A stretch of DNA of 64,000 nucleotides from Psammoneis japonica (taxonomy: Eukaryota). This document shows, piece by piece, positions 39,246 through 64,000 of this stretch (positions within the stretch are counted from its first letter, which is position 1; every line of letters starts with the position of its first letter). The position numbers and the translations under genes were made by a program. Below the pieces are notes generated by a model. The model saw only the letters and a program-made list of their open reading frames with translations. It did not search any database and was not told where the DNA came from. The stretch is taken from the NCBI GenBank assembly GCA_008632985.1, contig QPGO01000008.1:290979-354978 (forward strand), given 5' to 3'.

Positions 39246-39501
39246 TTATGACCGCACTTACCATACCGCGGATACGTTTTCTGGTCTTTCGGTCATCATT
39301 TGCGTAGGGATGCTTTCTCATGACGTCACCAGTCGCTCATAACCCACCTGCCACCGAGCCACGAGACGCGAGACGCGAGACCAAAATCCCACGGCCGACG
39401 ATGATGAGCTGAGCCATTATTTGTTTTCCGCCGCACTCTTCGTTATTGCCGCACTGTAGTCTCATCCCTTTCTCCATTCTAGATAGTTTATTGTGTATGA
39501 T

Positions 39502-41859: not shown

Positions 41860-42909
41860 ATGCCAAAAACGAGAAGCCGCATTGCCGCCATTGAGGCCGC
41901 CGCCAAGCGCGAGAGCAACAAACGCCAACTCGCAACGTTCTCCAAGGCCTCGACGAGGAGTCGTAGTAAAACCAGCAGGAAGCGGGTCAAGCGAAAGAAG
42001 AATACTACAACTCCAGTCCACGAATTGGAGTACGACAATCTCGTTGTGTACGCCGGTATGGAGCATCTACCCGAAGAAGTGAATGGTGTAAAGGAACCGG
42101 ATTGGGAATCGCTTTTCCCCGTTTCTACCAAGCCGGACGAGGAGTACCGCATTCCACCGCGCATGGCGTCCGTGCTTTACGACGAAGCCATTATCATTGT
42201 TGATGACGTTCGTCTCTTTTCTCCTCGTGGTGGAGGATGCTCTGGAGAACTACCACGAATCTTGAGAAAGTACTTTTGTGGTTGCAGCAACAAAAGGCAC
42301 CGCATCCAGCTTCTTGCGTGCTTTGATCGAATCATTCAACGACTCGGCAAGGGGATCTTTCCTCGTGCAAACTGTGTTGGAGAAATTGTGGCTCTTCAAA
42401 TCATTACCGAGTGTGCTGAACTCAGTGAGAATTTTTTCAGCGTCAATGACAACAACATTCATCTACCAACTACCAAACACGACGAGGACTTTGATTTGCT
42501 TCGAAAGCACTTGTTTGATTACAACGCTATTGTTGCACTTAGTATTATCTTTGAACGAAACGTCGATATTGACCGATATTACTACGGTATCTCCGACGAA
42601 GAAGAAGAAGGGCAACAGGGTGACTGCTTCGGTGACAACGACAGCCACCAAACGGAAACAACCAAGGAATCGATTCTCCGTAAACTCCAGCATTGGCAAG
42701 TGTCTCCGCAGGAAGTTGTAGCCACCAAGAAGCTTCCTTCACGAGATAGAATGATTCGCAGTTCCAAGAAACAAGTAGCAAAGCATTTGCCCGGTCTCCA
42801 GGCGGACTTTGCTTTTGAGGCCGATGTGGCGTCCAAGATGCTTTTCAACTTGCATACTGGACGGTGGTTTGTGGCTTTGTCGGAAGCGGACTTTACCAAC
42901 CACCTGTAG
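41860..42909 (+). CDS. Hypothetical protein, 349 aa, basic N-terminus
   Basis: Long ATG-initiated ORF of normal composition. No family recognised. Confidence 0.7.
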   Translation: MPKTRSRIAAIEAAAKRESNKRQLATFSKASTRSRSKTSRKRVKRKKNTTTPVHELEYDNLVVYAGMEHLPEEVNGVKEPDWESLFPVSTKPDEEYRIPPRMASVLYDEAIIIVDDVRLFSPRGGGCSGELPRILRKYFCGCSNKRHRIQLLACFDRIIQRLGKGIFPRANCVGEIVALQIITECAELSENFFSVNDNNIHLPTTKHDEDFDLLRKHLFDYNAIVALSIIFERNVDIDRYYYGISDEEEEGQQGDCFGDNDSHQTETTKESILRKLQHWQVSPQEVVATKKLPSRDRMIRSSKKQVAKHLPGLQADFAFEADVASKMLFNLHTGRWFVALSEADFTNHL

Positions 42910-43252
42910 AGCTGTAGGAAGGGACCAGTCAAAAAGAATCTTTGATTGTATTGGAGGGATATTGGTGGTTTGTAACCTTGTCGGACTCAAACTTGATCAG
43001 TCTTTCGCATACGGGTACCACGACAATGGAAGCCGTTTGTGACCTTGTCGGACATGAACATTAACCAATTGTTTTGCTGGCATTCCCTTCTATGAAAGTA
43101 TACTGTCGTCATGTTGGACATGTTCTGTACAGTATCAACCAGGACTTGTGGAGAGAAAGAATTCAAACAACTGTTGTACCGTTCTTCTAATCAATAACTT
43201 TCGTTTCACCGACTACACTACCGTATTATATTACTTCTACCAAGATGATTCC

Positions 43253-44094
43253 TCAGCGAACTAAACCCAGAGTCTTGACCACACGACGATATGATTCAAA
43301 GTCCTTGCGCTCCATGTAATCCAAAAGCTTGCGCCTGCGTACATAGAGAGCATCCAATCCTCGTTTGCCAGATTTGTCCTTTTTGTGCGTACGCAAATGT
43401 GTCTGAACTTGTTGAATCCGCGTCGTCAACGCAATCACTAAATACAGCGAGAAAAAGCAACCAAAATAAAGAGGGCAATCAGAGAACGCCTTCTGTAGTA
43501 ACAGAGACTGAAGATATCAACGAAACAGACAAAAATACCTTGCACAGCACTCGATCCCGTGTCACCCTCTCTCAGTTGAAATAATTCCATACCACGTTGC
43601 TTCTGAGCCTTGATAACTTCGGATTGATTTCCATTGGTCAGATCAAACAACTTTCGGACACGATCACTCATTTTGAGTCCTTCAAAGTGAAATCTCAGAA
43701 GCGGCTCTTGTTGGCTCCGCTCCAATCGCCGCTGGTGCATGGCTTCTGACGCCTCCTTTTCCAACGCTTTTGCTTGTTGATCTCGTTCTACTCGTGATGG
43801 AGCGTTCAATACGACGTTATCCTCTATCGAAATATAGTTAGGTGGCTTGGATGGGAAGATACCCCGAGCTGCGTTTGCAGCCTTGCGTTCCTTCTTCTCC
43901 AAGCGTCGACGTTTGGTTTTCGTCATGCGGCACCGAATCTGTTGCTTTTGAGATAAGCTCGTTTCTGCTATAAGAAGACTGTTAGTTGTCACGCATGACG
44001 AAGTTGCAACAAGCTGCCTTGCCAACAACGGCGATGACAAGGACGATCTCAGCAGCAGGAACGTCATGCTCACCGTGCTTTTTGCTGTCGCCAT
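43253..44094 (-). CDS. MRPS15: Mitochondrial ribosomal protein uS15; exons 44094-43539 and 43437-43253
   Basis: GDTGSSAVQ|VIALTTRI...HKKDKSGKRGL...RRRKLLDYM after a 101-nt GT-AG intron. Presequence-like N-terminus; alternative start at 44067. Confidence 0.92.
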
Positions 44095-44949
44095 ACCGGT
44101 ACCAATAACCTTACCTTGGGGGGCGTCTTTGGATGGAAGTGAGATCGTCGAAGGCGGTCTGATCGCCAGTGCGTTTGGGGGTTTTCCCAGTACGTCCCCC
44201 AACCTACCGGTACCGGTATGAGATACGACCTACCGTGCTGATAGGCCTACGCAAGCTCCGCTGCCATGGATCATGGACAGACCGATGTTGCTTTCTAATG
44301 ATGTCTGCTGCTCTACTCTAGCTAGCTAGAGACCACTCTACTCTCTACAAGTGCCACAGTAGAAAGTCTCTAGAGTAGAGAGAGAGAGAGTAGAGAGACT
44401 AGCCCTGCCACAGGGTCTAACACTTTTGTGATTATTTTGCCGGCAGCTGCTCTCTGGAGAGAGCCCTCCACACTCTAGCTGGAGAGAAGTGGTGGCTGCT
44501 GACTTCCAGCAGCTGGCCACTTGTGGGCAGAGAGAGAGAGAGAGAGAGAAGCAGTGGCATTCACAGTGGCAGTGGCTGCTCTCTAGCTAGTGGGCTGGCT
44601 GCAGCAGCGCTCTCTAGAGCAGAGAGACATCGCGGCTGCGCAGCCGCTTCCGTCACCCGTCACCCAGTTTCATCGTCCGAGGCTCATCGTAAGCAGCATC
44701 AATGAAATGTCTTGTGCGGGCGCAACATAAGTAAAATCTAAGCGCGACAATGACAAGCATTCAAAGATGGCACGCACTGTGTTTCTGCAGCATGCACAGC
44801 ATCGCTGAGCTGCAGCAGACAAACAAACAGCAACACACTGAACATTTGCACCTTTTAACCTCTTCGCGTGACCACACTGTGCCTTCGTTTTCGATCCTTC
44901 TACACAAAGTCGTACAAATGACACAACATGTGCAATGACGCACCAGTGG

Positions 44950-45870
44950 AGCGAAACAGCAAAATCCGGCATGGAGCCTCAATCGCACGCTCCCCAACCA
45001 CCGCACTCCAGGGGCCAGTGCACATGGGGTCGTTGTCAATGAAAAGGGTCTCGGAGCCAGCGTCATTGACGCATGCATCCACAAAGTTGTTCATGACTTT
45101 GGTTTTCTTGACCGCAGTGTCCGCACTGCCGACAAGAACTCTGACACCAGTGCCAACATTTTCAATCTCGTTGCCATCCAGAAAAGTGGAAGGATGTTTG
45201 CATGAGCACAATGCCATCGCTGCAGGAGCCGACGTTTGAGATTTTGTTCTTTTTGATGAGGCAGTCAAAGCAACTGTCCATGTCAATGCCAGTGCCAGCA
45301 GAGATGATGCCGTCAATCAGATTGTCGTCGATGACAGTGCCTTCTCCATCTGGAGCTTCAATGCCAGTGTTCCCTGAGTCTTGGATGATGTTGTCCTTGA
45401 CAAAGCTGTCGATGCCATCACCGTGAACAATGCCAGCCACACCAGAGTCATCAATGGCATTCTCCTTGATCTTGTTTTCATCCCCTGGGACAATGATGCC
45501 ACCGAGACAGTCTGCAACAAGGTTTTTCTTGATTGTGTTGTCAGCCAAGTCAAATGAGCCTGGCACAGCACCAGAGCTGAAGGCGACCCCAACGTTGTTT
45601 CCTGAGGCACACATGATTGAGTTTTCCTTGACAGTGTTCTCGTCCACAAACACTTGCCCACCACAACCAGCATCATCAACAGCCTCAACAGAAGTCTTGT
45701 GCTGCAACACGACGCCGGCACTGGCAGCCGCTGCAAAACCAGGCGACACGTCCGTGAATGACATTCTTTTCAACGTTGACTTTGACAGAGTTGACAAGAT
45801 TGACTCCAATGTCAGATGAACTGATTTCATTCTCCCTGACATCCGTGTCCTCCCCTGGGCAGAACAAGGT
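44950..45870 (-). pseudogene. Right-handed parallel beta-helix (PbH1/NosD-like) protein pseudogene, 5' truncated
   Basis: Repeats of ~22-25 aa such as IKKNLVADCLGGIIV, IKENAIDDSGVAGIV, VKDNIIQDSGNTGIE and IDDNLIDG. Frameshifts; no Tyr. Confidence 0.75.
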
Positions 45871-45879
45871 GATCGCAGA

Positions 45880-48800
45880 TGAAGCAGCATCATTTCCAAA
45901 GCTTCACAAGTGCAATGACAAAGTGAGGCAGTTCAAAGAGAACAACAAGAAAGCTGCCACCTCAGCCAAGATTGCAAATGACCGCTGCACCAAGCAAATG
46001 AAGAAGCATGAAGTGCGGGGCACCCCCCCTTGCATGATGACTGGGGATGATCTGATCAAGCCACTGAAGATGATCCAGTCATTTGCTTTCAACTCAATGA
46101 GAGGTTGACACCCACTTCACACACTTGCCAGCAGGTCCATGCAGAATTTTGCTGGGTGTGAAACAACAAGAGAGCAGGTTGCTGAATGACTGTCTGCCAA
46201 GATTCAAGAGCCAACAAGATGCTGCAAGTGAAGGTCTTGGAAAGGAAATGCCAGATGGACTCATTTCAAAGACCAATGAGTGTGCAAGGATGGCACAGCA
46301 ATGGAGCAGCAAGAGACAAAGCAGGCAGCATTTGAGACATGGACAAAATGCCCATCTCTTTTGAAGAACAGCAACGATGACTTCAAAGAAGAGCTTTGCC
46401 AGAGACTGCAGCCTGGGAAAGGAAGGGCACACATCCAAAGACCATTGAGAAGGCCATTGTGCCACTGAATCACCAGAAAGACAATCTTCCTTGCGAGAGA
46501 CATGACAAGAGGAACAATGGCCATGCAACAAGCAGCATGAGTGTCAATGACATGATGACAAGAGCAAGAGGTCAGATCATGCAAAGGACCACAGTCATGC
46601 CCAGAAAGGCAAGCAGAATGATGCAACAGTGTGCCACTGATTTGTGGCAAACTGAAATCAAAAGTCCCCAAGCTGCAAGCATCAAAACAACACTGCACCC
46701 AACAATTGGTCCAAGAATGTTGGCAAGAAGCTGGGTGCAAGGGGGCAAAGTCATGTGCATGGACAAGATGAGGACACATCTTGTGTTGGTGGACAGCAAT
46801 GATCCCAGTGTTTGTGCCACCAGATGTGATTGGATCAACCAGCTCAAGTCAAAGCAGGAGCACTGCACATGGCACCAACTGCAGCTGGCAAACAAAAAAC
46901 CAGAGATTGGCTTGAACCAAGTCTCAGCAAAGATGTTGATGCAGCTGAGATCATCCTTGATGATGGTTCTGCCCTCCTCAGCATGGCAGCAAACCAGAGA
47001 CCAGTGCACAATGTGCAGCCGGCAAAAGCTGAGATTGACCTGTCCACAAATGCAGGAGTGGATGCCCTGGGTGAGGGCTGCACTTTGCTCAGATGGGAGA
47101 CACACTCCCCTTTGCAAGTGGAGAATGTGGTTTTGATGTCATGGTGATGCACTGTTCATGTCATGAATTTTTTGTGTGTCATTGTGTCACCAAATTTTGC
47201 ACTTGTGCACAAATGCCAATGGCAACAGGAAAAATCCTGAACCACATTTTCCCCCAAATCTTGAGTCGCCTGGAACCAACCACAGCTTGTTGTGACACTT
47301 TTTGACCTTTCTTGCAACCACAAAAAAGCACGTGTCACATCAGATCGACCATGATGATGCCTCACGACTCTTCCCCAACGCCTTCCCAGGACACCATTCC
47401 CACCAACACTGTTGATGACAACACTGATGCAACAGGCAATGTCATTGCTTCTGTTCTGAATTGCCTGACACATGCAAAATAAGATGCCACAAACTGACGC
47501 TGTCATTTTCACTCTCCACTGCCTCCCACAGAAGCTGTCACAAACACCAGTGCCATCCCTGCGTTTCTTTCGACTGGCATGCCCGATGCTGTTGCTCATG
47601 CCCTTGGCACAACAGGTGCTGTTGACACTGTCATTGTCTTGTGCCAATGACATGCACTGTTGATTGCCACAAACTGACACTTTCATTTGCATGCTGCACT
47701 GCCTCCAACAGACAAGAATGTCACAAATGCCAACACCGCACCTGCTTTTGGCTCCACCAGCATGCCTGACACTGTCGCTCCTGCCATTGCTGTTGCAGGC
47801 ACTGTCAACACTGTTGTTGTCTTGTGCTGACAACATCCACAATCAAATGGTGCCAACTGACACTGCTTTCCATTCTCGCTTCTTGCCCTGCAGCCTCCCA
47901 CATGTGCTGTCGCAAACACCACCATGCCGACCTTTTCCCCATCGTCCGCAACCCCTCCCAACGCTGCTGCAACCCGCACGAACGGTTGCACACTTGCTCC
48001 GGCATGCAGTCATCACCCAAATGTGCAGGGTGTGGGTCTGGCATTGGATTTGACCAACTTTTCAGCACTTCATCCCGGTGGCACCGAGTGCATGTCCCGA
48101 GTGGCTGGGCCTGCCATCAAACTGTTTGGGTTCTTGCATCACCGCAACAGTTTGACATGCCGACAAGCCTCCACAAATTCTGGAATCATTGGCATTGGGG
48201 TGACCAACTTCCAAGGGTCAAGAAGTGATTGAAGAGGAGCTGGATGCGTTGCAGGATTGTCTTGGAAGGCTTTGACTCAAAATTGACCAAACGGCTTTTG
48301 GCCACATGGAACATCGAGGCTGTCTCTGAACGATTTGCAAGCTCTTCCCCAAATGGATTGAATCAGTTCCATCAGCTTCCCCCAGAATGAGAGCCGTGGA
48401 CCTCAGAACTTTGTTGAAAGAATTGGTCGATGGCTCTGCCAAAAGTGACCCAGTCAATTCTTCTCAACAAAAAGTCAAGGGGGGGAAAGCACACACACTT
48501 TGGATGCTTGATGGGCGCATCGAATTCATGTTCATTGACGAATCAAAATGGAGTGTGGTTTTCCCAAACAAGGACAATTGCTTTTGCCAGAAAGAAGTGT
48601 TCCACAGTGCAATGATCCAAACTGGCAAAGCAATCAAGGGGGTGGGGGATGGCACACATTTTCATGCTGGGTTGGGTGTCGTGGTTCTAAGCCCATTGGC
48701 ACATTTTATCGAAACGGCACACTGCACTGTCAAGTGTGTGTTTTTTGGCACACGACAGCACTTGCACTGCACAGTGATCTCTCTTTCATTTCTTGAAAAT

Positions 48801-51800
48801 GTCCACAAACAATCCCATGTCCTTCTCATGGGCTTGTGATTTTTGTTGCGTCACTTGGAATTTCAAATTAGAGACAGCAGTCGTGCTCTGTTCCGCAGCC
48901 TCTTTGAGTTTGGGACAGTCTTTTGGAAATGGGGTGGTGCCCTGCTCCACTCCAACTTGGTTTTTGACACTGTCCAAGTCACCGAGCACCCAGAGTTTGA
49001 TGACTTTATTCTCTTTAAGTGCAGAGAAGGCAGTGTTGCACCAAGTGACTTCGTGGCTGGCACCCGGTTGCCCAAAAAACTCAGACTTGTGAACGCCACT
49101 GCACCAGACGCGGGCAGCTGCCTTGTTCTCTGTCATGACAATTTGTTGGATTTTCTTGTTGCATTTTCCCAGACAATTGTGAACAGGAGATCAGCACATG
49201 TCGCCAATGATGACACACACAGATGAAGGAATTGTGGATGGCATTGACCAGCGGTGCAGGTTTGGCATTGACAGAAGCTGTGGCAGGTGGTGGGCGAAAA
49301 TGGAAAACAGTGTCAGTTTGCAGCATTCAATTGTGGATGTTGTTGGCACAAGTTAACAACAGCATCAACAGCACCTGTTGTGCTGAGAGCATGAGCAACA
49401 GCATTGGGCATGCCAGTCAAAAGAAATGTGGGGACGATGTTGGCATTCGTGACAGCATCTGTGGGAGGCGGTTTGGCAGGGAAATGACAGTGTGAGTTGG
49501 TGGCATCTCGTTTTGCATGTGTCAGGCCATTCAAAACAGAAGTGATGATGTCACCTGTTGCACCAGTGTTGTTTGTAACAGCGTCAGCAGGAATGGTGTC
49601 CTGCAAAGGTGTTGGGGAACAGTCATGAGAGACATCATCATGGTTGAGTTGTCAAAACACGTGCTTTTTTCGTGGTGTGGAAATGGCCAAAAAAGTGTCC
49701 CACGCAAGCTGTGGTTGGTTCCAGGTGACTCAAGATTTTGGGGTGACATGGGATGGGAGTTTTCACTTGACGACATGTGCATGTTTGCAAGCACATGAAC
49801 ACATCTGACTCAATGCATGTGATGATGTCATCACACATCACCCACACCCACGTCCCACAGGACCACTTGTGAAGGGGTGGGAGACACAAAGCTTGGATTG
49901 CAGAACACAACAGCAAACATCCTCAGCACAAAGGATGTCAAGAGCAGGCACTTCGTTGCATGTGATGACCAAGTGGTGGACAAGAAGACTGGCAAGCAAG
50001 TTGCAGTGCTGTTCAAAGTTGACAACATTGAGCTGGTGTGTGCCTTTGCACCAAGCCAGAAGTTCTTTGACCATGTGAAAGATCTCCAAGAAAGCAAATT
50101 GCATGTGAGCATCCTGTCAAAAAAGAAAATAGATCAGAGAAGAAGAGCAACAAGCAAGAAGCACAAGAGTGCATCTGGAGCCACAGCTCTGACGGTGGAG
50201 CAGAGCTCCATGACAAGCTGCGCCAACAAGTGAGAGGGAGGTGGCAAATGCTGAGCAAGCACTCAGGCTGTGCCACAAAGCTGGAGCACCAAGTGTGAGA
50301 GATTTCAAGCTGTTTTTGTGATCAAGTTGGCTCTGCAAGCTGTGCCAAGAGGTGGTGAATGCCAAGCGAGCACTCAGGATGTGCCACAAACAGCTGGAAT
50401 TTCCAGTGTGAGAGATTTCAAGCATTTTTGTGATCAAATCAGGTTGAGAACTTGTTCATCGTGCAGGAAGACATGGAATGGTGGACATTTGGGGGCCACC
50501 TGTCACCCTGCCAGAACAAAAGGCCAAATGTTGACATTGATCCCATGAGAGGAACAACATCATTGCCATTCCACCTGAGACACATGAGAAACAAAAAGAA
50601 GGTGTGATCCCCCCTGTGTTGTTGTTGTGGAATTGTGTGGAGTGAAGATTCCACATGCAGCTGGCAAGATGATCAAGTGTCAATCAAGTGTGAGAATGTG
50701 AGTTCAAGAAATGTGCCAATGCATGCAGTGCATTGGACATGATGCTGTGCCAGCACAACATGGCTTCATCCAAGATTGACTTCATTGAGTGTGATCCTGA
50801 GTTCAAGGCTGTGTTGGAGGAAGTTGCTGACAGCATGAACCTGGAGCTGATGTCTGGCACACAAATGCCAGCAACCATGTTCCCAAAGTTGAGCAGAGCA
50901 TTGAGATCATCAAGGAGAAAACTCAAGCCACAGTGCACCACCTTCCACACAAGGCAATGCCCAAGCTGATGTGCAAGCACACTGCAATCAAGAACACTGT
51001 GATGGCAAACATGTGCCCAAAGGAATTTCTGACACACACAGTCCATGCACTGTTGTGCAATGAAGAAACCTTGACTGTGACAAGCACCTCAGTTCATTTG
51101 TCCTGTCCCATGTTGAAAACAACTGGACAAACACCATGGGTGCATGTGGCATTGACAGCATGTGCCTGCAACCACCTTTTGACATTCCCAAGGGTGGGCA
51201 CCACACTGTGAAGAATCTGCACACAGGAAAACTGCTGAACCCCTGCAAGTGCACTGCCACACCCCTGACCAACACATGCACACAAGTGGTCAAGAAGATG
51301 GCCTCATTGCAGGGCATCAAACACTTCAAATTTGCAGACAACCTGTGCAACGCTGATTGGACTGCAGGAGCAGATGACAAGAAAGCAACAACAAGAGCAA
51401 CAATGACAGTCAAGACAACAACAAGAACAAGCACAATGATGCCAACTGTTCAACCAAATCAGAGAACAAAAACTGCAAATGTGAGCCTGACTCAGATGAA
51501 GAACATGAAGAAGCAAACAAAATGCTGGCAGGCAAAAGATCCAGCCCCGATTGATGGCATGATGACTGCAAGACAAAGAACAAAAAAACCATGAACAAGA
51601 CAAAGAGTCAGAAAAAGACAATGAACCCACAAAGGGGAAAAGAGGAGAAGCAAAACTGACAGAAGATGCGCGCAAGATGCCAGTGAGAGTGATGAGGAGT
51701 GGCGCCAAGTTCAGCACACCCCACAACATGATGTCACGCAAACACAGAGAAAAAAGTTTGATTTGCAGGACTGGCAGATGCAGAAGTGGAGCAAGAGCAG

Positions 51801-53530
51801 AGAGCAGAACAAGCTTGAGTGCTGCCATCACTTGAGAAAAATGTCAGCCCCAATCTGGGGAACAACATTGTTGAGTGCAACACAGAAACAGGAACAGCAA
51901 TGTCACATTTTGTGTGTGAGATCAATGGCTGGCTCTAGTCAGAAAAGGGGGTTTTCTTTGCCTGATGGCACCTGCTGCATGAAGGCTCAAAAGCATTTGG
52001 TCAGAGGGGGCATGATGCCTCTGAGAAGGAGACAAAACAACTCCACAACAGAGTGCACTTTGCACCAACATCAATTGAAAATGCAACTCTGGCTGAGAGG
52101 GCCAAGGCTGTGATTGCTTTGATGTTCCTGATGGAGAAGAAAGATGATGGTTGCATGAAAGGGCAAATGGTTTGCAGCAGCAAACCAACCAGAGAATGGT
52201 TGGACAAGGATGAATCAGCCAGCCCAGGTGCATTGTTGTTGGAAGGGACATCAACAACTGCTGTTGTTGACACTGTGGAACAAGAGCACGGTGCAATGAG
52301 TGCAAATGTCTTGAGCATGTTTCCACAGACACAGAGGTGCTGGAGCCCAAGGAAGGCACAGACTGGATCATGATGAAGATCACAGGAGTGTTCATTGACA
52401 TGCCAGCAAGCATTGATCCCAACCTGTGCTGGCCACATGTGGCCATGGAGAAGGGGAAAGAGTTCTCAGTGTCCAAGTCACCAAAGCTGCCCATGGCATG
52501 TTGGTCATGACTCCATTGTGGGGCAAGCAATTTTGCAATGCCTTGGAAAAGATTTGATTTGAGTGAGTTCAACCCATGTGATCTGTTCATCACCAATTGC
52601 AGACAACCTGTTGCTGAGCCTCAAAGAACCCCAAAGCAAACAACATGTTTTTGAGCTGGCCAAACAAGATGCACGGAAACCACGGCAAAGTTGTCACAAC
52701 AAGAGGAAAGAAATGTGGCCACCTTGGCATGATTGTGGACTTTAGCCACAAGGGCAAGGTGAAGGTTGATGTGACCAACTGCACTCACAAGATGATTTGA
52801 TGCCAGCTGGTGAAGAAAAACCATTTGACGCTGGTGGCACCAGACTGCCAGCAGAGCAAGCAAAGATGTGCCCACATGTGTGGGCAGCCAAGGGGTCATT
52901 CCTCTCCAAGAGAGGTTGTGTGGATGTGCACCTGACCATCACAACATTGTGTGTGCAAGTCAGGGAACCAACCAACAAAGATTGGGGAAAGCTGGTCTTT
53001 TGCCTCAAGTGTTTGATCTGGGCACAAAACGAAGTTGCTGCATTGAGTGCAAAGAACCTCCAAATCATCAAGTGGCATGTGGATGCCTCCTTTGTGGTGC
53101 ACAAGGATTTCAACAGCCACACAGGAGGAGTTGTGACCATGGGTGATGGAGCAGTGCAAGCCACATCAAAGCAACAGAAGCTCAACAAATGAGGCAGTGC
53201 TGAAGCTGAGTCAACAGGAGTTGACAATGCAACAACCATGTGATGCTGTGGACAAAGTTGTTCATGGAACATCAAGGCCACCCAATCAACAAAAACATCC
53301 TGTGTCAGGACAACAAGAGCACCACACTGTTGGAAAACAATGGGTGCAAGAGTGCCAGAAACAGGCTCTTGCTGATCAGATCAAGAAGGGCAATCTTAGA
53401 GTGCAGCGTTGTCCAGCCGATGACATGCTTGGAGACTTCATGACTGAGCCATTGCAGGGCAAGAAATTTTGAAAATTCAAACAAGCCATTGTGGGCTGTC
53501 AGGGTCAAGCATGAAAGGAGTGCTTCCTGT
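45880..53530 (+). mobile_element. Decayed Ty1/Copia (CoDi-like) retrotransposon A: gag-protease ~45.9-47.1 kb and integrase-RT-RNaseH ~50.7-53.5 kb, split by nested DNA
   Basis: HPKTIEKAI, IILDDGS...STNAG, ECDPEF, HHLPHKAMPK, LMFLMEKKD, FNPCD, KWHVDASF..H.D..SHTGG, NILCQDNKS, CPADDMLGDFMTEPLQG. That both halves belong to one element is inferred from their collinearity. Confidence 0.85.
47140..49840. mobile_element. Nested element with long (~0.5-0.65 kb) diverged inverted termini containing ~180-bp internal repeats (foldback/Mutator-like)
   Basis: 47200-47700 is the reverse complement of ~49300-49800, e.g. AAATCTTGAGTCRCCTGGAACCAACCACAGCTTG. The unit AACTGACRCT recurs at ~47490, 47670 and 47855. 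Confidence 0.7.
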
Positions 53531-55889
53531 TTGTGATGTCAGACAAGAAATCTGATGCATGCAGGTGAAAGATCCTGCAAAATGGAAGATGTGAAACAAA
53601 CCCTGTGGCTCAGCCAATTGCAGCTTGTTTTCCAAGCAGCCATGATGTTGATGGCCGTGCATGCCGGCATCAGAGGAGATGAACCAGGGCATGTGAACAA
53701 ACACCTGGAACCACATGACTTTGCCGCGAGATGTCAGCTGCAACGTCATTGGAAGAAGCTCAACATGTTTTGACAATTGTCAAACAAAAACAAAAAGAGA
53801 AGAGAACTTCAAGACCCAAACTGCCAAAAGGCAGTGGCAGAGCATGACAAGTGGAGGAAGCAATGCCTGTGAATCCATTTGTCCATCAAGAAGTGGTTGA
53901 CATGGGTCTCTTGACACTTGAGTTCCAGAAACATGGGAAGGTCATCTGGGCTGTTCTCCACAGAATGCAAGAAAAGTGCAAGAAGGAATTTGAGGAAGAC
54001 CGGCACAAGTGGTGGACAGCAAGGCACATCACATTGTGGTGCACATGTTCTGCAGTGCAAGAGTGGGTCTGCAAAGTGCACCAGTGTGTTTCCACTGCTG
54101 CGCCAATGATCTCCCTGTTGGACAAGAGACAAGAACACATGATCACAGCATTTGAGACATGCAGAAGTGCAAGGGAAGCACACAAGACCAAGGAACATTG
54201 GGAGATTGTTGGAAGCCAAGAGCCAGGATTTAAGGATGTGAATGTTGCTGCAGAAAAAGATCCTGTGAAGACTGTCCCAACAAGCACAATGAAGAAAAAC
54301 AACCATGGGGTCAAGTGGCAATGATTTTTGTTTTGCCTCAGACAAGGAGGGCGTCGACCATCTGAGCAAACTGTTGTTGGTGAGCTGCCCCACCTGCGGG
54401 ACATGTGAACCTCTTGTGGAGAAGCACACTGCCAACTTGCCCCAAGAGACAAAAGAGTTTCAGCTTGGATTGGTGCAAGACAATGAGGGCATTGTCTGCG
54501 ACACTTTAAAGTTGGCACAATTTTTCCAACATGGAGTTGTTGAAGCAAAACCCAGACAGGAGCAGGCCTGCCACAATGTGGAATTTTGTGAGCTGTGCTC
54601 ATGGAGGATTGATGAGTGGGTCGTGGATCTGATCAAAAATGTGGGTCCTTGCAGCAAGAATGAAGAAACAGAAAGGACTTGCCACACTTGTGGGAAGCAT
54701 TTTGTGGATCAAACAGAAGGGATCACAAATGCCCTCTTTGATCTGGTTGACTTTGAACATGATGTGGAAGGATGTTTGCTTTGCTTGTGTGAACTGTTGG
54801 ATGGTGGCATCAAGGCAGTTGACATGACTGGCAAGTTTGTGGTGATTGCTCCATGAAGAGAAGTTGAGCCTGACTGCAGCTGGGGAAACAAACATCAAAT
54901 CATCAGCACAAGCAGCAGGAGCATGTTGGATGGTGCAATGAACCTGGATGCACTGAAGAGAAGACATTGTTGCTCCTGATGCAGAGGGTTCAGCAACTTT
55001 TTGCAATTGAAAGTCAATCATTGCCCATCTCTCTTAAATTTCTGCTTTTGTCTCACTCTTTAGAGGGAATCATTTGGCCCATCACAACCACACAACTCTG
55101 TTGCATTGGTGTCACCAGGTGCTTTTTGCACTGCAAGTTCAAAGTTTGAGGCCTGCGCCAACAACTTCTGGGCAACCCACAGCTGCTGCAAGAGCAGCAG
55201 CCAACAAGCAAATGCAACAAGCAGCACAGGAAGCCTCACAAGACTCTGTTTTGGTGATGCCAGCTTGCTGGTTCAACATGTTGATGCCATTTCATTGTTG
55301 AGCACAACCCAAAGGAGCACATGCATGCCATGCTGGCAAGGTTGCTGGCAAGGCAAGAGATTTTGCAAAGGAGAAGTTTGTGTGTTGACAACAATTGCTC
55401 AAAAATTGTGCCATGTTTTGAGCCTGATTTTGGAATTGCTCCCCATTGTCTGTGCCAAGCTGAAGTTTTGTTGTTCCAGTGTTTGTGCTGCAATCAACCC
55501 TTCCCACATCTCATTGAGAGATTCTTGAGAGAGCTGGCACAGTGCCAACAGCTGCTGTGAACAGCAAGATTGACTCATTTGAGGCCCTTCACAATTTTGA
55601 AATGGCTTGCAGCAGACTCAAAAGGGACAAAAGAAAAACAGAGCCAAAAAATGCAATGCTCTGAGAGATGAAAGCTGCAAGTGCTGAAAACAGAGATGTT
55701 GCTGGAAGCTGGCAAAATTGGAGCACACTTCCAGACACTCTTCCCTTCAAGCACAAGCAAAAAGGAGAGAGAGAGAGAGAGAGAGCTCACTGCACACTGG
55801 TTGCAAAACAATGTGCTCCAAAGATGACAAGGCAGAATTGGCTCAAAATTGTGAAATGTTTTTGGAGTGCAAGCATGTGAGGACATGGG

Positions 55890-57293
55890 ATGGGCTGGAA
55901 ACAGCAAGAAAAAACAGGAGATGAAGTGGAAGCAGCCAAGGTTGTTGACATCATTGACCAACTCAAACAAGGCAGGTGCTGCAAAAGGATGCAAAGAGGG
56001 GAAGACTCCAAAGAAGACTGCTGCTTTTTGTTTTGTCTCAAGGAACATCTTGAGACATCTCCAGCATGGGACAAAATCAAACTCGTGGGTGATGCTAAAA
56101 AGTCTTTGACTGAAGACTTTCCCCAACTGTCCCTTGTGGACTTCGAGTCCTTTGCTCTAGAGCGCTGGGCACTTGAAGAACCAGACAAAGTCCGTGAGCT
56201 CTGCAACAACCAGACATCCGAGCACTTTGCTCAACGCGCGTCAAAGCAACTGCTTGTTGCATCATTTGACAAAGAGCCACGTCAGGATGTTGCCCCGGAC
56301 ATGAACAAAGCATGCCACAGTGACGGCTCCACGCACTTCTTCTTGGCTTGCCAGAAGCTCTTTCCGTTGCCTCAGATGCACATCAACAACATCCAGTCTC
56401 AGATGTTGAAGATCTCTCTGGTCAATGACTGCGACAGCAACGTCGACAAACACATGAGCAAGTTCCGCCAGCACTTGCGCCTGCATGCTCAGCGTGACAG
56501 TGCGCTCGAGCATGCCCTCACAGAAAAGGCATTTGAAGAATTCAAGACTGCCCCTTGCAAACCCTTCGCGGACGAGATGGCCAAGCACAAGACAGAATGG
56601 ATGCGCAAGACACAGGTCACGTGGACAATCAAAACCCTGTTTGACGAGGCGATCAGCCTCAAAAATGCTTGTGTGGCCCAGCAGATCTGGGACAAGCCCT
56701 CGGACAACGACACTCAACCAATGGCCCCAATTGTGGGTCAGAAAGAGACAGTCGGATTCGCGCAGCAAATGGCCAAGGTCACGACCGCCTTGCAGAGCAC
56801 CCTGCACCAGCAGACACGATTCGAACGTCACGGCCGTCATGGCAGGCGCGGCAATCCAGGTCGCGGTGGTCGTGGTGGACATCATGGGCGCGATCGCCCT
56901 CGTGCACCTCATCGTGGATCCCCGCCGTTCTTGCATCTCGAACCCAAAAACAAGTCTCAGGAAAAACAATGGGGTGACAAGACCTGGCATTGGTGTGATG
57001 CTTGTAAGATGCATTCTACATGCCACAGCACTGACACTCATGATGAGCACATTGCTGCAAACAGCAACAAGAGCGGTGAGCGCACATCCAACCAGGGCGG
57101 CGGCGCACAGAAAAGGAGCGCCTGCGACCACAAGCGCCAAAAGGCTCAGTCTAAGATTCAGGCTGACATTGACAAGTTGCAGAAACTCACTGCCAACTTT
57201 TCTTTCTCCAAATCTGTTGCTGCTCTTGAGCAACAGAGGGGAGATGGCAATTGGACACTCCTGGTTCGCCACATGCTTGGGATCCGGTTTTAA
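55890..57293 (+). pseudogene. gag: Copia B gag
   Basis: 467-aa ORF with an RGG-rich segment and knuckle-like KTWHWCDACKMHSTCHSTDTH, directly upstream of the protease. Confidence 0.75.
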
Positions 57294-57332
57294 TCAAATG
57301 CTTTCCTGGAACGGTCAAAACAAAAGCAAAGC

Positions 57333-60300
57333 ATGAAACTGGCGCCATCTGTGCTAAAACTGCACCAGCAACGGCATGGTTTAGCAGGAGAGATTGTCGA
57401 CAATGCTTGTGCCTTTGAGACAGCTCTCGAGAACCGCGGACGATTCATCCGTGGTGGCCCCGTGCAAGCGAAACCCCGCTCCACGTCTGCATTTGTTGAC
57501 AAACGTGATGTGCCACAACTGGCCAAAGCACATGAAACTGTTGACTCTGGAACTCCTGAAGAAAACAAGGAGCTGCTGAGCACTTTAGCAGAACATGCTG
57601 CACACCTCACAGATGAGGCACCTGCCCTGACATCGGATGAAATTCACTTGGTGATTGATTCCGGTGCATCTGTCACCATTGCAAACAATGAGAATGATTT
57701 TACAGGGCACACAAGACCAGTTCAGAACTTGAACTTGAAGGGTGTCGCTTCAGGCCTCGCTGTGGAAGGCATTGGCACGGTGAGATGCTCCTTCATGGAC
57801 GACGCCGGTGTCAACTTCACCGTCAACATAGAAAACGTGTCACACGTCCCCACCTGCCCGGTCAGACTGCTTTGCCCACAGCAAGTGGCAGCCACAAGTC
57901 CCAATCAGGATGCTGATGGGTTCTTTACACGTGGCAGTTCTGTGACAATGATTTGTGGGCAGCATCGCAAGACAGTGCGATGTCATCATGAACCAAATCT
58001 TCCGATTCTTGCTGCTGCACCAGGCTTCGGCAACTGCCAAGCATTTTGCTCTGACACAAGAGCTGATGGCACTTTGCCATCATGCACCAATGTCAAAGCA
58101 CACTCGGCTTCGTGTCTGGCTTTTGCTGTCACAACACGAAAGCAAGAGGCGGCGGCCGACACAAAGGTCAGACCGACTCAAGCCAACAAGCAAAATGAAA
58201 CCACAAATGTGAACGGCAAAAAGGCCCGGCCTGCCCAGCCTCAACAAGCCTCACCAGTTCACGAGGGAGGCACAGAAGACAATCTGCTCCCCATTCAACG
58301 CGACATGTTAAAATTGCATCATCGCATGGGCCACGTTGGATTCGAACAAATCCGAGAATGGGCCAAAATCGGCATGGTGCCAAAACGCTTCAAAAAATGC
58401 AAAGCCCCGGTCTGCAAAGCTTGCGCATGTGCCAAAGCAAAGCGCAAAGCTGCGCAATGTGGTCATCGAATTGATGAATGCCACGACGATGCTCCAGGTG
58501 AGGTGCATCGGCGGACCAACTCGACGCGAGTCATCCAGGCCCACTTCCCACTGCTCGTGGCAAACCAACCACTCGCAGGTGCAAACACTGCACCCCATGG
58601 ATTGATCATTTTTCTAGATTTATCTGTCCATGTGTGCAAGAGTCTGCTGGAGGAAAAGAGACTTTGAATGGCAAAACCAAGCTCGAGAGATTCGCAGCCA
58701 AACACAACATCAAAATCAAGCATGTTCATGCCGATGACAGCATGTTCGCTGCTGCAGAGTTCACAGAACACTGCATTGAAAACAAACAACGGAACTCCTG
58801 TTGTGGAGTGGGAGCACACTGGCAAAACGGCATCTCCGAACGGCACACAGGCGTCATCACCTCGATGATGCACACGTGCCTGTTGCACGCTCAGTCCCTG
58901 TGGTCTGATGCAGCAACTACAGAGTTGTGGCCACACGCCATTCAACAAGCTGACAACTTTCACAATGTGTGCATCAGAAAGGGCAAACAGAAAAACCCCT
59001 GGGAACTGTTCACTGACGAGAAACCGCCATTCCAAATGGATGATTTTCGCGTGTGGGGGTGTCCTGTTTACATCGCGGACAAAAGTGTCCAAGACGGGAC
59101 TCACATCGGAAGATGGGCCAAACGGTCACGACAAGGAGTGCATGTGGGACATTCGCTGGACCATGCCAGCAATGTCTGCCTGGCATGGGACCCCACAACC
59201 AAACACGTCTAGCCACAATTTCACGTCACTTTTGACGAAAACTTTACAACAGTGGCGCCCCCCGGAAACACGTCCACCGACGCATTAGAGGCAGCTCTTG
59301 AAAAACCATTCAATGACCACAGCAATGCTTGGACTCACCACGATGAGTGCTTCAATCACAATTGACACCATTTTGAAAAGAATGTCTGGACTGAGGACGA
59401 CTTGCTCCGTGAACACGGCATCAACCCTCAAGCGTGCAAACAGATGCAGAAAAAGAATCACAAATCACGAGGGAGCAAACGCACTCGCAACGGCGAAGAA
59501 AAACCAGATGCTGACGACACATCAGCAGAGATTCTGCCAGCTGCTGGTGCCTCGGACACAACACCGACCCACGCAGCAGCTGCACCAGCAAATGCGACAA
59601 CACCAGCAGAATCAGCACAAGCCCCTGCCTCCGAGGCTGTGCTGCCTGTGGCGGCAGGTTCTACATCGGAGAATGCAGACGGGACCGGCTCATTGTCACA
59701 CCGCCCGCCAGCGGTCGACAATGCAACACCATCACTCATTGACAATGCAACAACCCCCGGCCCAACTGTGGCAGGATCAGAGGATGCTGCAACTTCTTTG
59801 ACAACACAAGAAGCCCTCAATGGCCTCAACATGGAAGCTGACCATGCTCGGCATCAATTTCAAGAATGCAAACGTCGAAAAGGATTAGACGACGAGGCAA
59901 CATGCACCATGGCACCAAACAATTTGAACCCGACAGACTCACCTGACGCAACCGCGTGTGCAACTGTGCCTCCACACCATCAGGAAGCAGCAGCAGAGCT
60001 GTGTGAAGAACCAGCCCATCTGATGGCACTCATGGGTTCCGCAGACAATGACACACTCCTTGACGAAGGAATTTGGAACGAATCCAGCCCACCAGCTTTT
60101 GAAGCAGCGGCGCTCGGAAATGCAGATGATCTGACCCAAGGTCAGATGAAGAAAGCGCCAGACCGTGCCGAATTCGAAAAAGCACAAGTGCCTGAAACAC
60201 AGGGTCTTGTAGACATGGACGCATGGGAACATTTGCCACGTTCCGAAGTTCCAAAAGACCACCGCCTGCTGAACGCGACATGGTCCTATAAAAGAAAAAG

Positions 60301-61800
60301 AAAACCAAATGGTGAACTGTCAAAACACAAAGCAAGAACATGCGTCGACGGATCAAAACAACAACACGGTGTTGACCATTGGGACACATTCACCCCCGTC
60401 ATCGCGTGGAGTGCAGTGAGACTCATTTTGTGTCTAGCGGCAATTGCCTGTCTGAAAAGCAGACAAGTGGACTGTGTGCAAGCATTTCCACAAGCAGAGC
60501 TGGAAGAACCAGTTTGTGTGAGACTCCCAGAAGGTTGGGAGGTCAAAGATGAAAATGGGAACACAATGCCAGACATGGCATGCAAACTCAAAAAGAACCT
60601 GTGCGGCACGAAAACTGCTGCACGAAACTGGTTTCAGAAACTGTCCAAAGGCCTGGAACGCCGAGGATTCAAGAAATCAAAACTGGACCCATGTCTGTTC
60701 ATCCGAAATGACAGCATCATCCGCTTGTGCACAGATGATTGTCTCGCATTCGCTCCAACAAATGACATTGTCACGACGCTCACACAAGAGCTCAAACAAG
60801 ACGAGTTCCAACTTGCCGACGAAGGCGATGCATCCGCTTTCTCAGGCGTTGACATCACTCAAACCGCAAACGGCGAGATGTCAATGACCCAGACTGGCCT
60901 TGTTGATTCCATGTTGACAGACCTTGGCCTGCAGTCAACCAACAATGAACCGTTGCAGAACAAGCCACGTGCAAAGGCTGCCCCAGAAGCACAAATGTTG
61001 CACCCTGATTCGAACGGTCAGGAGCGTCAAGAAACATGGAACTGCCAGTCAGTCATCGGAAAGATGAGTTTCTCAGCTCAAATGACTCGCCCTGACATTG
61101 CAATGGCGGTGCATGTGTGCGCTAGATTTTCGAATTGCCCAAAGGCATTGCACGAACGCACTGTCAAATGCATCGGACGCCACCTGTTGGCAACTTCAAC
61201 AGACGGAATTAAGTTCCGGCCAAAAGGGAAATTCTCCCTGGATGCACATGTTGACAGCGACTTCGCAGGAATGTGGCACAGAAATTTTGCCCACCTCCAC
61301 GATTCGCACCTTTCCCGATCAGGACATGTCATCACATTTGCTGGCTGTCCCATCTGTTGGAAGAGCAAATTACAAACCGAGACAGCTCTCTCCTCAACTG
61401 AGGCTGAACTTGTTGCGCTATCACAGTGCTTACGTGAGCCATTCCCTGTGAGAACTGCGCTGGAAGAATTGTCCAAAACCATGGATTTTGAACTGGCAGA
61501 TTCACACATTGAACCCGGTTCTCTGGAAACTCTTGTGTCACCACACAAGCTTCCCCCGTCCACCGCACATGAAGACAATGCCGGCTGCATTGTCCCAGCC
61601 ACATCTGACGAGCAACACAGAGTGCCGGAGCCAAGCACATTAGCATCAAATGGATGCATTTTCGTGACCACATCAAACGTGGTTCTGTGAAGGCAGTGAA
61701 AGTTGACACCAACCACAATTGGGCAGATTTGCTCACTGAACCTCTTGGAAGAACCAAGTTCGAAGGTTTGAGGCGCATGACAATGGGTTGGCAACCCTGT
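57333..61800 (+). pseudogene. pol: Copia B pol (protease, integrase, reverse transcriptase, RNase H), with frameshifts and one TAG
   Basis: VIDSGAS; LHHRMGH..CKAC; HVHADD, CGVGAHWQNGISER, WGCPVY; KHKAR, NLCG, LCTDD, TRPDI; HVDSDFAG, ALSSTEAE, HEDNAG, ADLLTEPL. Confidence 0.93.
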
Positions 61801-62012
61801 GAGCAGTTCAACACGGCTGCAGAATGTGACAAAAACAGCATTTTTGACTTGTGCAAATGGCGCCATTGTCTCGCTTCTCCTCGAAGCACGAGGGAGAGAC
61901 AAACCCTAGACACACCCTAGACACTTTCTAGGGATGCTCTAGAGGCTTAACAAAGACATTGCTTCATCGGCTTAGCTTCTCTTACATTGCTTGACAGAGC
62001 CCTCGTCGACAC

Positions 62013-62030
62013 GAGGGAGTGTCACGGTCA
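62013..62030 (+). promoter_or_regulatory. Polypurine tract (GAGGGAG) and start of the 3' LTR (TG at 62020)
   Basis: CACGAGGGAG|TGTCACGG about 220 bp downstream of the RNase H end. Confidence 0.6.
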
Positions 62031-62940
62031 GCGTACGACGTGCAGACGGACAGACTGTACCTCGTAGAGAACAGCTCGTGCTGACTCAGTGGGATGATGT
62101 CGAAGACACCTCTGAAGTGACTGACGTGGATAGATCATAGACCGCAGAAGCAGTGAGCCTCTAAAGCTCACAATGTCTTCACAAGACACAGCTCCATTTT
62201 CACAGACATGTGCCAGTCTTGCAATTTCTGCAAAATGTCTTTCAACAAACTGCAGCGCCAGTCACTTGACAATGTGCAAGAGGGTTGTGGTGCTGGTCTT
62301 CTCACTTGAGCTCCTCAGCTTCAGAAAAAAATGCTGCGCTGCATGATTTGAAGCAAAGTTGATTTGTGATGACACCAACCGTCTCATGGCAACAAGGCAG
62401 TTGAAACAGATTGACCCCTTGACATGCTCCAAAGATTCTTGGCTGCATGGCTTTCCCCTTCACTTGTGTGGCTGGGAGTGTGAAAATGGGCACAATGGCT
62501 GAGCTCTTGCAGCAGAACAAGGCATGACCTTCTGGGTCTTGGCATGTCAAAAAACAAGATCTGTTGTTGAGAAAGCCAAAAAACAATGCTCAAACATTTG
62601 AGTGCTGCTGAGCCAACAGCAGGTTGGGAAACTGAAGAAACAAGAAGAACTTCAGAAAGATTCTTGTCAAGAAAACTTCAGAAAGATTTTTGTCAAGAAG
62701 CAGACAAAGTGCAAGTGCTTGATGCAGAAGAAGCCAAGGAGCACTCTGTGGCAGATGACAACAAAACAGGAGAAGAAGAGCCTCTTGGTTTTTGAACTTG
62801 GACAGCAGCTGGTCAACATCAAAAGTGCTGTTTGTGGGAACAGGCCATGTGCAATTTTAAAAGCAGGGCAGCACCCAGAAGCAGTCAGCAAAGCATGCAA
62901 GTTGCCACAAGAAAATGTTCTACAATGTGCAGCTCAGTGC

Positions 62941-64000
62941 AGGATCCGAGTGTTGACTCAGCAAATGACCGCTTCGGACTGGATCTCAATTGCAGTGTGC
63001 ATGCAGACAAAAGGTTATTTTGTCACGCCCTTTGTGACATTTGAAGGCTGCAACACGTCGCCGTGATGCATCAACTCTTGTTAGCAGCTGTGTGTTGCAC
63101 AGTTGATCCCAGTCAAGAACCACTGAGAAGTGACAAAACCTTGTGACACTTGGGAGACTCACAGAGCAGAGCATTTGGTGCAAGCTCTGCTCCACACAAG
63201 GGGGGGGTGGGAGAAACCCAAACCCTCCGCAGGGTCCTGCACCAGTGCAGGGGCTCTTCCGGAAATTCAACGGAGCACTGGCACCTCGGGCGTTTTCGAG
63301 AGCCAACCCCCAGTGGCACACCCTTCGGCATTTCGCGACGTTGGGCAGCAACTGGGGAGTGAAGTGAGCACCTCGAATGAAGACACGCCAGACCAAGTTT
63401 TCCCGCACAAAAACCAAAGCCGTCAAAGGTGTTGTGCTGCGTTGCAATCCCAGACCTCGTCTTGTCGACTCCCGAGGCCGAATGAGACGGGTCGAGCTCT
63501 GGTCCCAGGGTGTGGTGGGTGGGTAAAAAGAAGAATGCATTTCCGAGCTTGAGTGATCCAGTCACGATGATCAGGGTTCCTGTTCCAACAAAGCTGGAAA
63601 AGTGAGAGAAAAGAAAACCGAAGTTTGACCGGTCACAGTCAGAAGACCAGACTGAGTCATCTTGAGTCGGAAGTGCCCCACTTCCGTCGCGGATCCAGCG
63701 AGAGGTCATGGTCATCGAGCGAGGTCGGTTTGAGTCAGTCCGTCTCCATCTAAACTTGGGTGCGAGGAGGATCCGAGCACTGACTCAGCAAACGACCGCT
63801 TCGGACTGGACCTCAATTGATCCTAGTCAAGAACCACTGAGAAGCAACAAAACCTTGTGACACTTAGGAGACTCACAGAGCAGAGCATTCGGCACAAGCT
63901 CTGCTCCACACAAGGGGGGGTGGGAGAAACCCAAACCCTCCGCAGGGTCCTGCACCAGTGCAGGGGCTCTTCCGGAAATTCAACGGAGCACTGGTGCCTC
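62941..64000 (+). repeat. Direct repeat (62941-63287 and 63768->64000), LTR-like or tandem unit; copy 1 has 113 extra bases (62993-63105)
   Basis: About 230 alignable bases, near identical apart from transitions. Confidence 0.92.

Follow-up and report, generated by a model that had tools for sequence, protein, structure and literature searches.

What removes nearly all TpA dinucleotides from long blocks of a diatom chromosome while adjacent genes keep theirs? The question is raised by a 64-kb window of Psammoneis japonica (64,000 nucleotides; positions 290,979 to 354,978 of contig QPGO01000008.1, assembly GCA_008632985.1), in which an earlier note, made from the letters of the sequence, had seen a candidate genome-defence system: A:T-to-G:C hypermutation of repeats directed at TpA. 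We consider it probable that a region-targeted mutator acts on DNA in this diatom and converts the A:T pairs of TpA to G:C in silenced chromatin.

Block limits were taken from TA-free runs, yielding four TpA-void blocks (A, 1-4169; B, 8690-17674; C, 31701-36837; D, 44913-64000); the rest of the window is referred to as gene blocks, and all block and composition counts cover this window. TpA occurred 26 to 58 times per kb in the gene blocks, compared with 0 to 13 times per kb in the void blocks. Counted together, the void blocks held 174 TA in 37,291 bases (frequency 0.0047, observed/expected ratio (o/e) 0.07) and the gene blocks 1,034 TA in 26,621 bases (frequency 0.0388, o/e 0.57). At the gene-block frequency, approximately 1,447 TpA would have been expected in the void blocks. 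The TpA-poor blocks are thus real and the genes normal, as had been claimed; a recount of positions 4681-4740 also returned the five TA originally reported. The ratio was low in each of the four blocks (o/e 0.05-0.14), the edges of which were sharp at a scale of ~100 bases. Runs of at least 200 bases free of TA fell within the four blocks in 53 of 53 cases (0 in the 26.6 kb of gene blocks), the longest extending over 2,567 bases (44913-47480). Partly mutated stretches were also found inside the void blocks, at 34-37 kb, 57-58 kb and 61-62 kb.

Comparison of void with gene blocks showed where the missing dinucleotides had gone. The frequency of TA fell by 0.0342 and that of CG by 0.0287, while TG rose by 0.0303 and CA by 0.0328; shifts in the remaining 12 dinucleotides did not exceed 0.008. 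Base composition, GC content included, was equal in the two sets. Across the void blocks, TG reached an o/e of 1.74 and CA of 1.64, and the ratios for AA (1.19 in void, 1.16 in gene blocks) and AG (0.99 and 0.94) were similar. The gains in TG and CA balance the losses, in agreement with the proposal of a DNA-level A:T-to-G:C change confined to TpA.

The blocks were compared with Logan contigs from a public run (X1), assembled separately from that run's reads and hence a control independent of assembly and polishing, though not of DNA preparation. Block D was matched by seven pieces of X1 contigs (7,446 bases in all) at a word depth of 60-71, compared with 58 over genes, with seven differing letters (0-3 per piece). 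A gene piece showed no differences over 4,146 bases. As independently assembled contigs reproduce the blocks at single-copy depth, the blocks are not an assembly artefact. Void bins at 44670-45336, 48005-48671 and 55342-56008 had X1 depths of 66-84, and void stretches at single-copy depth were located at 44.4-45.9 kb and 55.2-56.1 kb. Summed X1 depth, which takes in only copies of at least 90% likeness, was 90-350 in most void bins and exceeded 500 only around the arms of an inverted repeat. A low-complexity stretch rich in AG/CT and CTAG (44300-44640), which adjoins block D, had a summed depth of ~1,500 and retained TpA.

We sought evidence that TpA had been lost by mutation and was not simply rare in the native sequences. 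The reverse transcriptase open reading frame (ORF) of the Copia element in block D (stop-to-stop 59366-61687) contained one Tyr in 774 residues, confirming an observation of the earlier note, compared with 1.3-4.3% Tyr in its homologues. Alignment with six homologues of 37-60% identity yielded 12 columns with a Tyr consensus, at which the window carried Cys (5), His (4), Tyr (1), Phe (1) and Leu (1). Control residues in the same alignment were retained: Phe at 14 of 15 columns, Trp at 7 of 7, His at 9 of 11 and Cys at 7 of 8. The codons quoted earlier for altered Copia motifs (CAC, CAT, TGT, TGC, TGC, TCA, CAT, ACA and GCA CAT) all proved correct. Two of these motifs have no diagnostic value: KHKAR is native in three of the five homologues aligned, and the closest homologue shares the His of AHEDN.

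Two unrelated coding sequences told the same story. A DDE-transposase-like ORF in block C, aligned with its closest relative, retained none of 19 Tyr residues (Cys 8, His 5, other 6) and carried Cys or His at five of six consensus-Tyr columns. In a glycerol-kinase pseudogene of block B, His or Cys stood at four aligned places where solved kinases conserve Tyr. All 22 Tyr-derived sites tabulated had CAY or TGY codons (Y, pyrimidine).

Further polarity was provided by a paralogous Copia copy, represented by a contig (record 14, matching window 59385-59842) from a run designated X2, which behaves as RNA (see below). The paralogue differed from the window at 33 positions over 458 bases. Among the 23 of these 33 differences that were listed, ten single sites had TA in the paralogue and TG or CA in the window, and none showed the reverse. 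Transcription of the paralogous copy is evident from this RNA contig (depth 88), in which both TpA and CpG are retained. Furthermore, related Copia loci from metagenomes had TpA o/e values of 0.45-0.89, compared with 0.07-0.2 in the window, and none was TpA-poor among the best-scoring 80 of 180 matches, a selection that biases against heavily mutated copies. Taken together, the replacement of Tyr by His or Cys in three coding sequences, the polarity of the paralogue and the normal composition of relatives indicate that the change is mutational and not native. It seems that the Copia family includes one or more members that are expressed and unmutated, beside the dead copy in the window. One environmental homologue, P0004 (an ENA metagenome contig of 1,545 bases), had His at four and Cys at one of 13 Tyr-majority columns, where other homologues had 0-1, and a Tyr content of 1.3%; its sequence suggests that it may be a partly TpA-mutated element of another organism.

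Repeat pairs within the window allowed the timing of the process to be assessed. In six pairs lying within void blocks, some of which overlap, 3, 5, 14, 12, 12 and 3 double mismatches of TG against CA were counted; three pairs in gene blocks had 0, 0 and 2. The inverted repeat pair 47251-47681/49309-49743 contributed 14 such doubles among 83 mismatched positions, and in the direct repeat pair 63100-63287/63814-64000, nine of ten mismatched positions were interchanges among TA, CG, TG and CA. Each TG-against-CA double represents one ancestral TA (or CG) resolved independently in the two copies, and mutation must therefore have occurred in place, after duplication.

The process acts on both strands about equally, as the earlier note had proposed. 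The 22 pooled Tyr sites were divided between 11 Cys and 11 His, TG/(TG+CA) varied from 0.40 to 0.58 along the blocks, and no convincing strand asymmetry of outcomes was found along them. The bases flanking TA, however, influenced its survival. In the gene blocks, 310 of 1,034 TA were in the context RTAY (R, purine) and 178 in YTAR. Conversely, 177 surviving TA in the void blocks comprised 12 RTAY and 76 YTAR (chi-square p 6e-17 against gene blocks), and 66 survivors in block cores comprised 2 and 38. RTAY is thus the most susceptible context and YTAR the least. Arithmetic on the flank counts indicates that TA in mixed contexts survives as would be expected if the two strands acted independently and differed ~3-fold in rate. 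Under certain assumptions, bulk tetranucleotide gains favoured an A followed by a pyrimidine by ~2.6:1, and six paralogue sites of asymmetric context, sorted by hand, gave five for this preference and one against.

CpG was also depleted, a feature to which the earlier note gave no stress. The CpG o/e of blocks A to D was uneven (0.11, 0.50, 0.81 and 0.41) compared with 0.95-1.01 in gene blocks, and in all four the depletion of TpA exceeded that of CpG. Uneven loss of CpG with uniformly low TpA points to two separate processes with common products, that acting on TpA being the faster. Assuming genic starting values, the Copia part has lost ~83% of its expected TpA and ~30% of its CpG, a rate ratio of ~5. 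The paralogous Copia RNA contig had CG at three places where the window had CA or TG (among the 23 of 33 differences listed). Loss of CpG to TpG and CpA is, judging from the sequence, probably ordinary 5-methylcytosine deamination of the kind seen in methylated transposons, and would mark the void blocks as methylated heterochromatin. Such deamination shares its TpG and CpA products with the process described here and is the probable source of the CpG deficit, but it is unable to remove TpA and so explains no more than the CpG part of the signal.

In block D, nine differences of full depth separating X1 from the window were examined, eight of which were interchanges among TA, CG, TG and CA and one a transversion. 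Within the eight, two were TG against TA, two adjacent differences made up one TG-against-CA double, and four were CpG-linked. These counts leave out six X1 rows at 49784-49795 (depth 39.7, 31-42 letters from the contig end and probably from a paralogue), those at 49842 and 49847, and all from 59423 onwards, which belong to mixed-depth paralogue contigs; 264 further differences lie outside those listed. The differences provide a small hint that both the TpA and the CpG processes are still generating variation.

Expression was assessed with the contigs of X2, which skip the GT-AG introns 40394-40477 (+) and 43438-43538 (-), of 84 and 101 bases, and thereby behave as RNA. The former intron is open and a multiple of three in length, which lets the M16 peptidase ORF, taken from stop to stop, run on through it. 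X2 covered the genes at 40.0-44.2 kb; no RNA contig of the window's own copy was found across 44670-59343 among the contigs of this one run. The blocks look like silent chromatin holding mixed elements and dead genes, and not simply like repeats. Presence in many copies seems insufficient by itself to draw the mutator. The suggestion that mutation is aimed at repeats or heterochromatin accordingly stands in part: the blocks are transposon-rich, sharp-edged and apparently silent, but stretches at single-copy depth and the glycerol-kinase pseudogene are mutated too, which does not support hypermutation "of repeats".

A mutator of the kind we envisage would change TpA to TpG or CpA according to the strand attacked. 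Its targets would be silenced chromatin with its transposons, dead gene copies and their surroundings, neighbouring expressed genes being spared, and it would work in place after insertion or duplication, nearly to completion. Elements would be disabled permanently, as their Tyr codons and every TAA and TAG stop are removed. We infer that silent or methylated chromatin, and not sequence repetition, provides the cue for targeting, because TpA loss is co-located with CpG decay and a lack of RNA. As to the underlying chemistry, the leading candidate, held tentatively and at slightly less than even odds, is a TadA/ADAT2-like enzyme that acts on DNA and deaminates adenine to hypoxanthine.

The earlier note knew of no described system of this kind, a statement that is now outdated. 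The same spectrum has been measured de novo by Mettrop et al. (bioRxiv 10.64898/2026.01.13.699255) in integrated giant-virus and virophage DNA of the chlorarachniophyte Bigelowiella natans: in mutation-accumulation lines, two such viral regions received 231 of the 302 single-nucleotide mutations found in the nuclear genome. According to the available text of this preprint, 230 of the 231 were A-to-G or T-to-C, all at TpA, at a rate of ~6e-7 per site per generation; the large target was single-copy and silent. The genome contained 124 clusters of windows poor in TpA and rich in CpA and TpG, and reverse-transcriptase and DDE domains were over-represented among its TpA-poor coding sequences. Adenine deamination is the mechanism that the authors propose, with an ADAT2-like candidate presented without an assay, and their Discussion notes that the preference of ADAR for a 5' U resembles A-to-G change at TpA. 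The words "diatom", "Phaeodactylum" and "stramenopile" are absent from the preprint text available. In our literature search, TpA hypermutation was reported only in this preprint (bioRxiv 10.64898/2026.01.13.699255), and no report was found for diatoms.

The likeness to B. natans, as described in the text available, is extensive. In both hosts TpA changes exclusively to TpG or CpA, on both strands and within regional bounds, the remaining DNA (here, of the 64-kb window) being normal; mobile or foreign DNA, which in the diatom appears to be silent, is affected, and a single-copy region can be a target. With o/e values of 0.07 for TA, 1.74 for TG and 1.64 for CA, the void blocks lie well beyond the cut-offs applied to the B. 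natans clusters (at most 0.43 and at least 1.52). Confinement to mobile or foreign DNA is less clear in the window, where the Copia and DDE genes are present but so are the glycerol-kinase pseudogene and the beta-helix and SnoaL fragments. There are further differences. The host described in the preprint belongs to Rhizaria whereas ours is a stramenopile, and the region of nucleocytoplasmic large DNA virus origin there keeps 3.3% TpA whereas the diatom blocks are near saturation. The cargo here consists of a long terminal repeat (LTR) retrotransposon, a DNA-transposon gene and cellular-type pseudogenes, with no viral genes recognised. CpG decay accompanies TpA loss in the diatom blocks, an RTAY/YTAR flank rule is seen here and none is given in the preprint's main text, and de novo events were measured there but are inferred here. 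On its sequence signature, the process is of the same kind as that of B. natans, in another lineage, at a later stage and with different cargo. New here are the near-saturation, the accompanying CpG decay, the single-copy and non-transposon targets and the RTAY/YTAR flank preference.

Comparison with better known mutational defences is also informative. Repeat-induced point mutation (RIP) of ascomycete fungi changes C to T (CpA to TpA), creates TpA, lowers GC content and needs duplicated sequence. Like the process considered here, it permanently disables mobile DNA through dinucleotide-specific transitions, spares genes and can leak into adjacent or captured genes. The direction is opposite, as the earlier note had recognised: TpA is destroyed (o/e 0.07) with GC content unchanged, and stretches at single-copy depth are affected. 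The substrate of ADAR is RNA and that of APOBEC3 is cDNA, edited C-to-U; either leaves its marks only in retro-copied sequence and on one strand. They resemble the diatom process as deaminase-based mutational restriction of mobile elements, ADAR also favouring a 5' U, but in the window a DNA transposon, a pseudogene and non-coding DNA have been mutated, on both strands and in place. The natural target of TadA and ADAT2 is an adenine (tRNA position 34) that always follows U, a two-base context matching TpA, and engineered TadA variants, the adenine base editors, show that the fold is able to deaminate adenine in DNA. We know of no natural TadA or ADAT2 for which region-wide editing of double-stranded chromosomal DNA is established.

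Other explanations for the spectrum were weighed against a deaminase. Oxidised thymines cause A:T-to-G:C transitions, and the same regional process might instead modify thymine (or adenine), for example by TET/JBP-type oxidation to hydroxymethyl- or formyl-uracil mispairing with G; a mutagenic modified base was also among the candidates of the earlier note. This would leave an identical signature, TpA being self-complementary; we nevertheless think it unlikely, as no evidence of such an enzyme or base in diatoms was obtained here and the B. natans authors, in the text available, favour deamination, albeit without an assay. Beyond deamination and base modification, we place the remaining weight on a chemistry not yet conceived. 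Error-prone repair synthesis of the Pol-eta type in heterochromatin, which the earlier note listed as a candidate, does yield A:T-to-G:C transitions beside a 5' T. However, its WA motif (W, A or T) includes ApA, which is not depleted (o/e 1.19 against 1.16), and AG reaches just 0.99, compared with 0.94; in addition, near-total TpA loss and a four-base palindromic flank rule resemble site recognition and not polymerase error, making this route highly improbable. Slightly less credible still is hyperediting of retrotransposon transcripts from A to I by an ADAR-like enzyme, fixed by reverse transcription and re-insertion. The A-to-G change after T/U resembles the preference of ADAR and the best example in the earlier note is a Copia retroelement, but ADARs are, to our knowledge, confined to animals, ApA is untouched, and copies have diverged in place by TG against CA. 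Moreover, outcomes are equal on the two strands (Cys 11, His 11), and the DDE-transposase ORF, the glycerol-kinase pseudogene and kilobases without coding signal are equally mutated, which together exclude an origin in editing of sense-strand RNA.

Some long-read platforms miscall systematically at methylated motifs, and an artefact of sequencing, base calling or polishing at modified bases might be suspected, the more so as X1 may be the assembled sample. Yet independent X1 contigs reproduce the blocks at gene-like word depth with 0-3 other letters per piece, the paralogue RNA contig carries TA at matching sites, so that TA is read within the Copia family, and TG and CA outcomes agree within codons (all 22 Tyr sites read CAY or TGY). 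We give an artefact very little credence. The possibility that we regard as most remote is that foreign elements brought this composition with them, or that TpA was selected against, for example to escape a nuclease specific for TA or insertion at TA or TTAA sites. A mild deficit of TpA is common to most genomes (o/e 0.57 in the genes of the window); however, conserved Tyr residues of catalytic motifs have been destroyed in three unrelated coding sequences, the composition is shared by none of the best 80 of 180 Copia relatives, and copies differ by independent TG/CA outcomes.

Several considerations weigh against the proposal of a regional TpA mutator. The mutator enzyme is so far hypothetical. 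TpA is self-complementary, such that A-to-G and T-to-C, and hence the chemistries behind them, are inseparable by sequence. The expected counts treat the gene blocks as a proxy for the ancestral composition of the void blocks. X1 may be from the same sample as the assembly, and silence and copy number were assessed over one 20-kb stretch, with contigs rather than reads. For de novo mutation in the window, the nine X1 differences are the sole hint. Finally, ten Tyr codons preceded by a pyrimidine were split evenly between 5 Cys and 5 His, and do not mirror the strand preference seen in bulk.

A broader reading can be entertained, although we regard it as doubtful: diatoms and chlorarachniophytes may have inherited a common enzyme system, guided by chromatin, for editing adenine (or thymine) at RTAY-type TpA in double-stranded DNA of the chromosomes and recruited by the silencing marks that bring CpG methylation, TpA being erased several times faster than methylated CpG. 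This would amount to a defence spanning the stramenopiles, alveolates and Rhizaria (SAR), and to a mirror image of RIP.

The features of the window are collected in Table 1.

Table 1. Blocks, elements and repeats of the 64-kb P. japonica window.
Feature	Position	Strand	Properties
TpA-void block A	1-4169		TA 15 (o/e 0.053), CG 26 (o/e 0.11), TG o/e 1.87, CA o/e 1.76; continues past window start
TpA-void block B	8690-17674		TA 46 (o/e 0.08), CG o/e 0.50; gap of 88 N at 14609-14696
Glycerol-kinase (FGGY) pseudogene	11447-12982	+	Block B; Pfam FGGY_N 1.1e-10, FGGY_C 2.3e-13; frame broken by in-frame stops
TpA-void block C	31701-36837		TA 43 (o/e 0.14), CG o/e 0.81 (CpG mostly retained)
DDE-transposase-like ORF, mutated DNA-transposon gene	35154-36779	+	Block C; 542 aa, 1 Tyr
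Control gene block, expressed (M16 mitochondrial processing peptidase alpha and others)	36838-44912		TA o/e 0.587, CG o/e 1.01
TpA-void block D	44913-64000		TA 70 in 19,088 bases (o/e 0.059), CG o/e 0.41, TG o/e 1.87, CA o/e 1.63; continues past window end
Beta-helix repeat ORF	45165-45932	-	Block D; Pfam Beta_helix 5.3e-12, NosD 2e-8; X1 depth 71-73 (58 in genes)
Inverted repeat, left arm	47251-47681		Partner 49309-49743; 79% identity; highly repeated in genome (summed X1 depth 528-914)
SnoaL-like fragment	48789-49190	-	Block D; Pfam SnoaL 1.2e-8
Inverted repeat, right arm	49309-49743		Partner 47251-47681
Copia beta-barrel and pre-integrase part of polyprotein	57294-58664	+	Pfam Pol_BBD 5.9e-7, gag_pre-integrs 4.8e-6
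Copia integrase, reverse transcriptase and RNase H region	58505-61791	+	Open frame, nearly Tyr-less; Pfam RVT_2 7.1e-36
Direct repeat	63100-63287		Partner 63814-64000; 94% identical

The Copia element was delimited by tblastn with homologue P0003, residues 149-1150 of which matched 58505-61621 and residues 1152-1204 matched 61633-61791. A search of the window by tblastn with nine homologues returned this single element, and the second Copia ("Copia A") implied by the earlier note was not located; nor did self-BLAST reveal a flanking pair of LTRs within the window. The DDE-like ORF had 253 relatives at E<=0.001, and Pfam DDE_Tnp_1 was recognised in one of nine relatives scanned; an Atlas lead (score 0.90) makes piggyBac-type DDE_Tnp_1_7 a candidate assignment. 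The glycerol-kinase pseudogene aligned with PDB glycerol kinases at E values of 1.8e-28 and 9.8e-16. A search for relatives of near length to the beta-helix ORF returned none, and no solved relative was found. An X1 contig links 47066 to 49879 through 29 other letters, omitting a segment of 2,812 bases with the inverted repeat arms at its limits; the interior between the arms may be absent from other copies or alleles, as with a DNA transposon or a hairpin-flanked insertion.

Among the genes, the mitochondrial processing peptidase had diatoms as all its best named relatives (Asterionellopsis, Seminavis, Cylindrotheca, Nitzschia, Skeletonema and others), at identities of 60% or less. This identifies the host as a diatom, with proteins absent from the collection searched, and not as Bigelowiella. 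A gene at 22364-24256 (+), of ordinary composition, encodes a Methyltransf_32 domain and a C-terminal R3H domain (single-stranded nucleic-acid binding) and has no evident tie to hypermutation.

Pfam matches were obtained for 8 of 116 void-block ORFs of at least 110 aa (none of the ten in block A), leaving block A, most of block B and 44.9-55.9 kb without annotation. With TAA and TAG gone, TGA is the sole stop left and long overlapping ORFs consequently appear on both strands. Gene finders would over-call in such blocks, and spurious long ORFs would mislead both gene and transposon annotation. Loss of Tyr together with TAA and TAG also causes domain searches to miss mutated elements, as the low proportion of Pfam matches illustrates.

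If confirmed, these findings would extend TpA-erasing hypermutation to diatoms, major primary producers of the ocean, and to ordinary transposons beyond integrated giant viruses. Its phylogenetic range would widen to a second SAR lineage, with a nearly saturated end-state available for study, and the process would be tied to CpG-depleted, presumably methylated, heterochromatin. The rule whereby RTAY is lost and YTAR survives is a constraint that any candidate enzyme must reproduce, and a natural A:T-to-G:C activity on chromosomal DNA would be of interest to those who build base editors. Should a shared SAR system prove true, it would supply, in its catalytic component, the first deaminase (or base modifier) of natural origin to rewrite A:T to G:C in chromatin.

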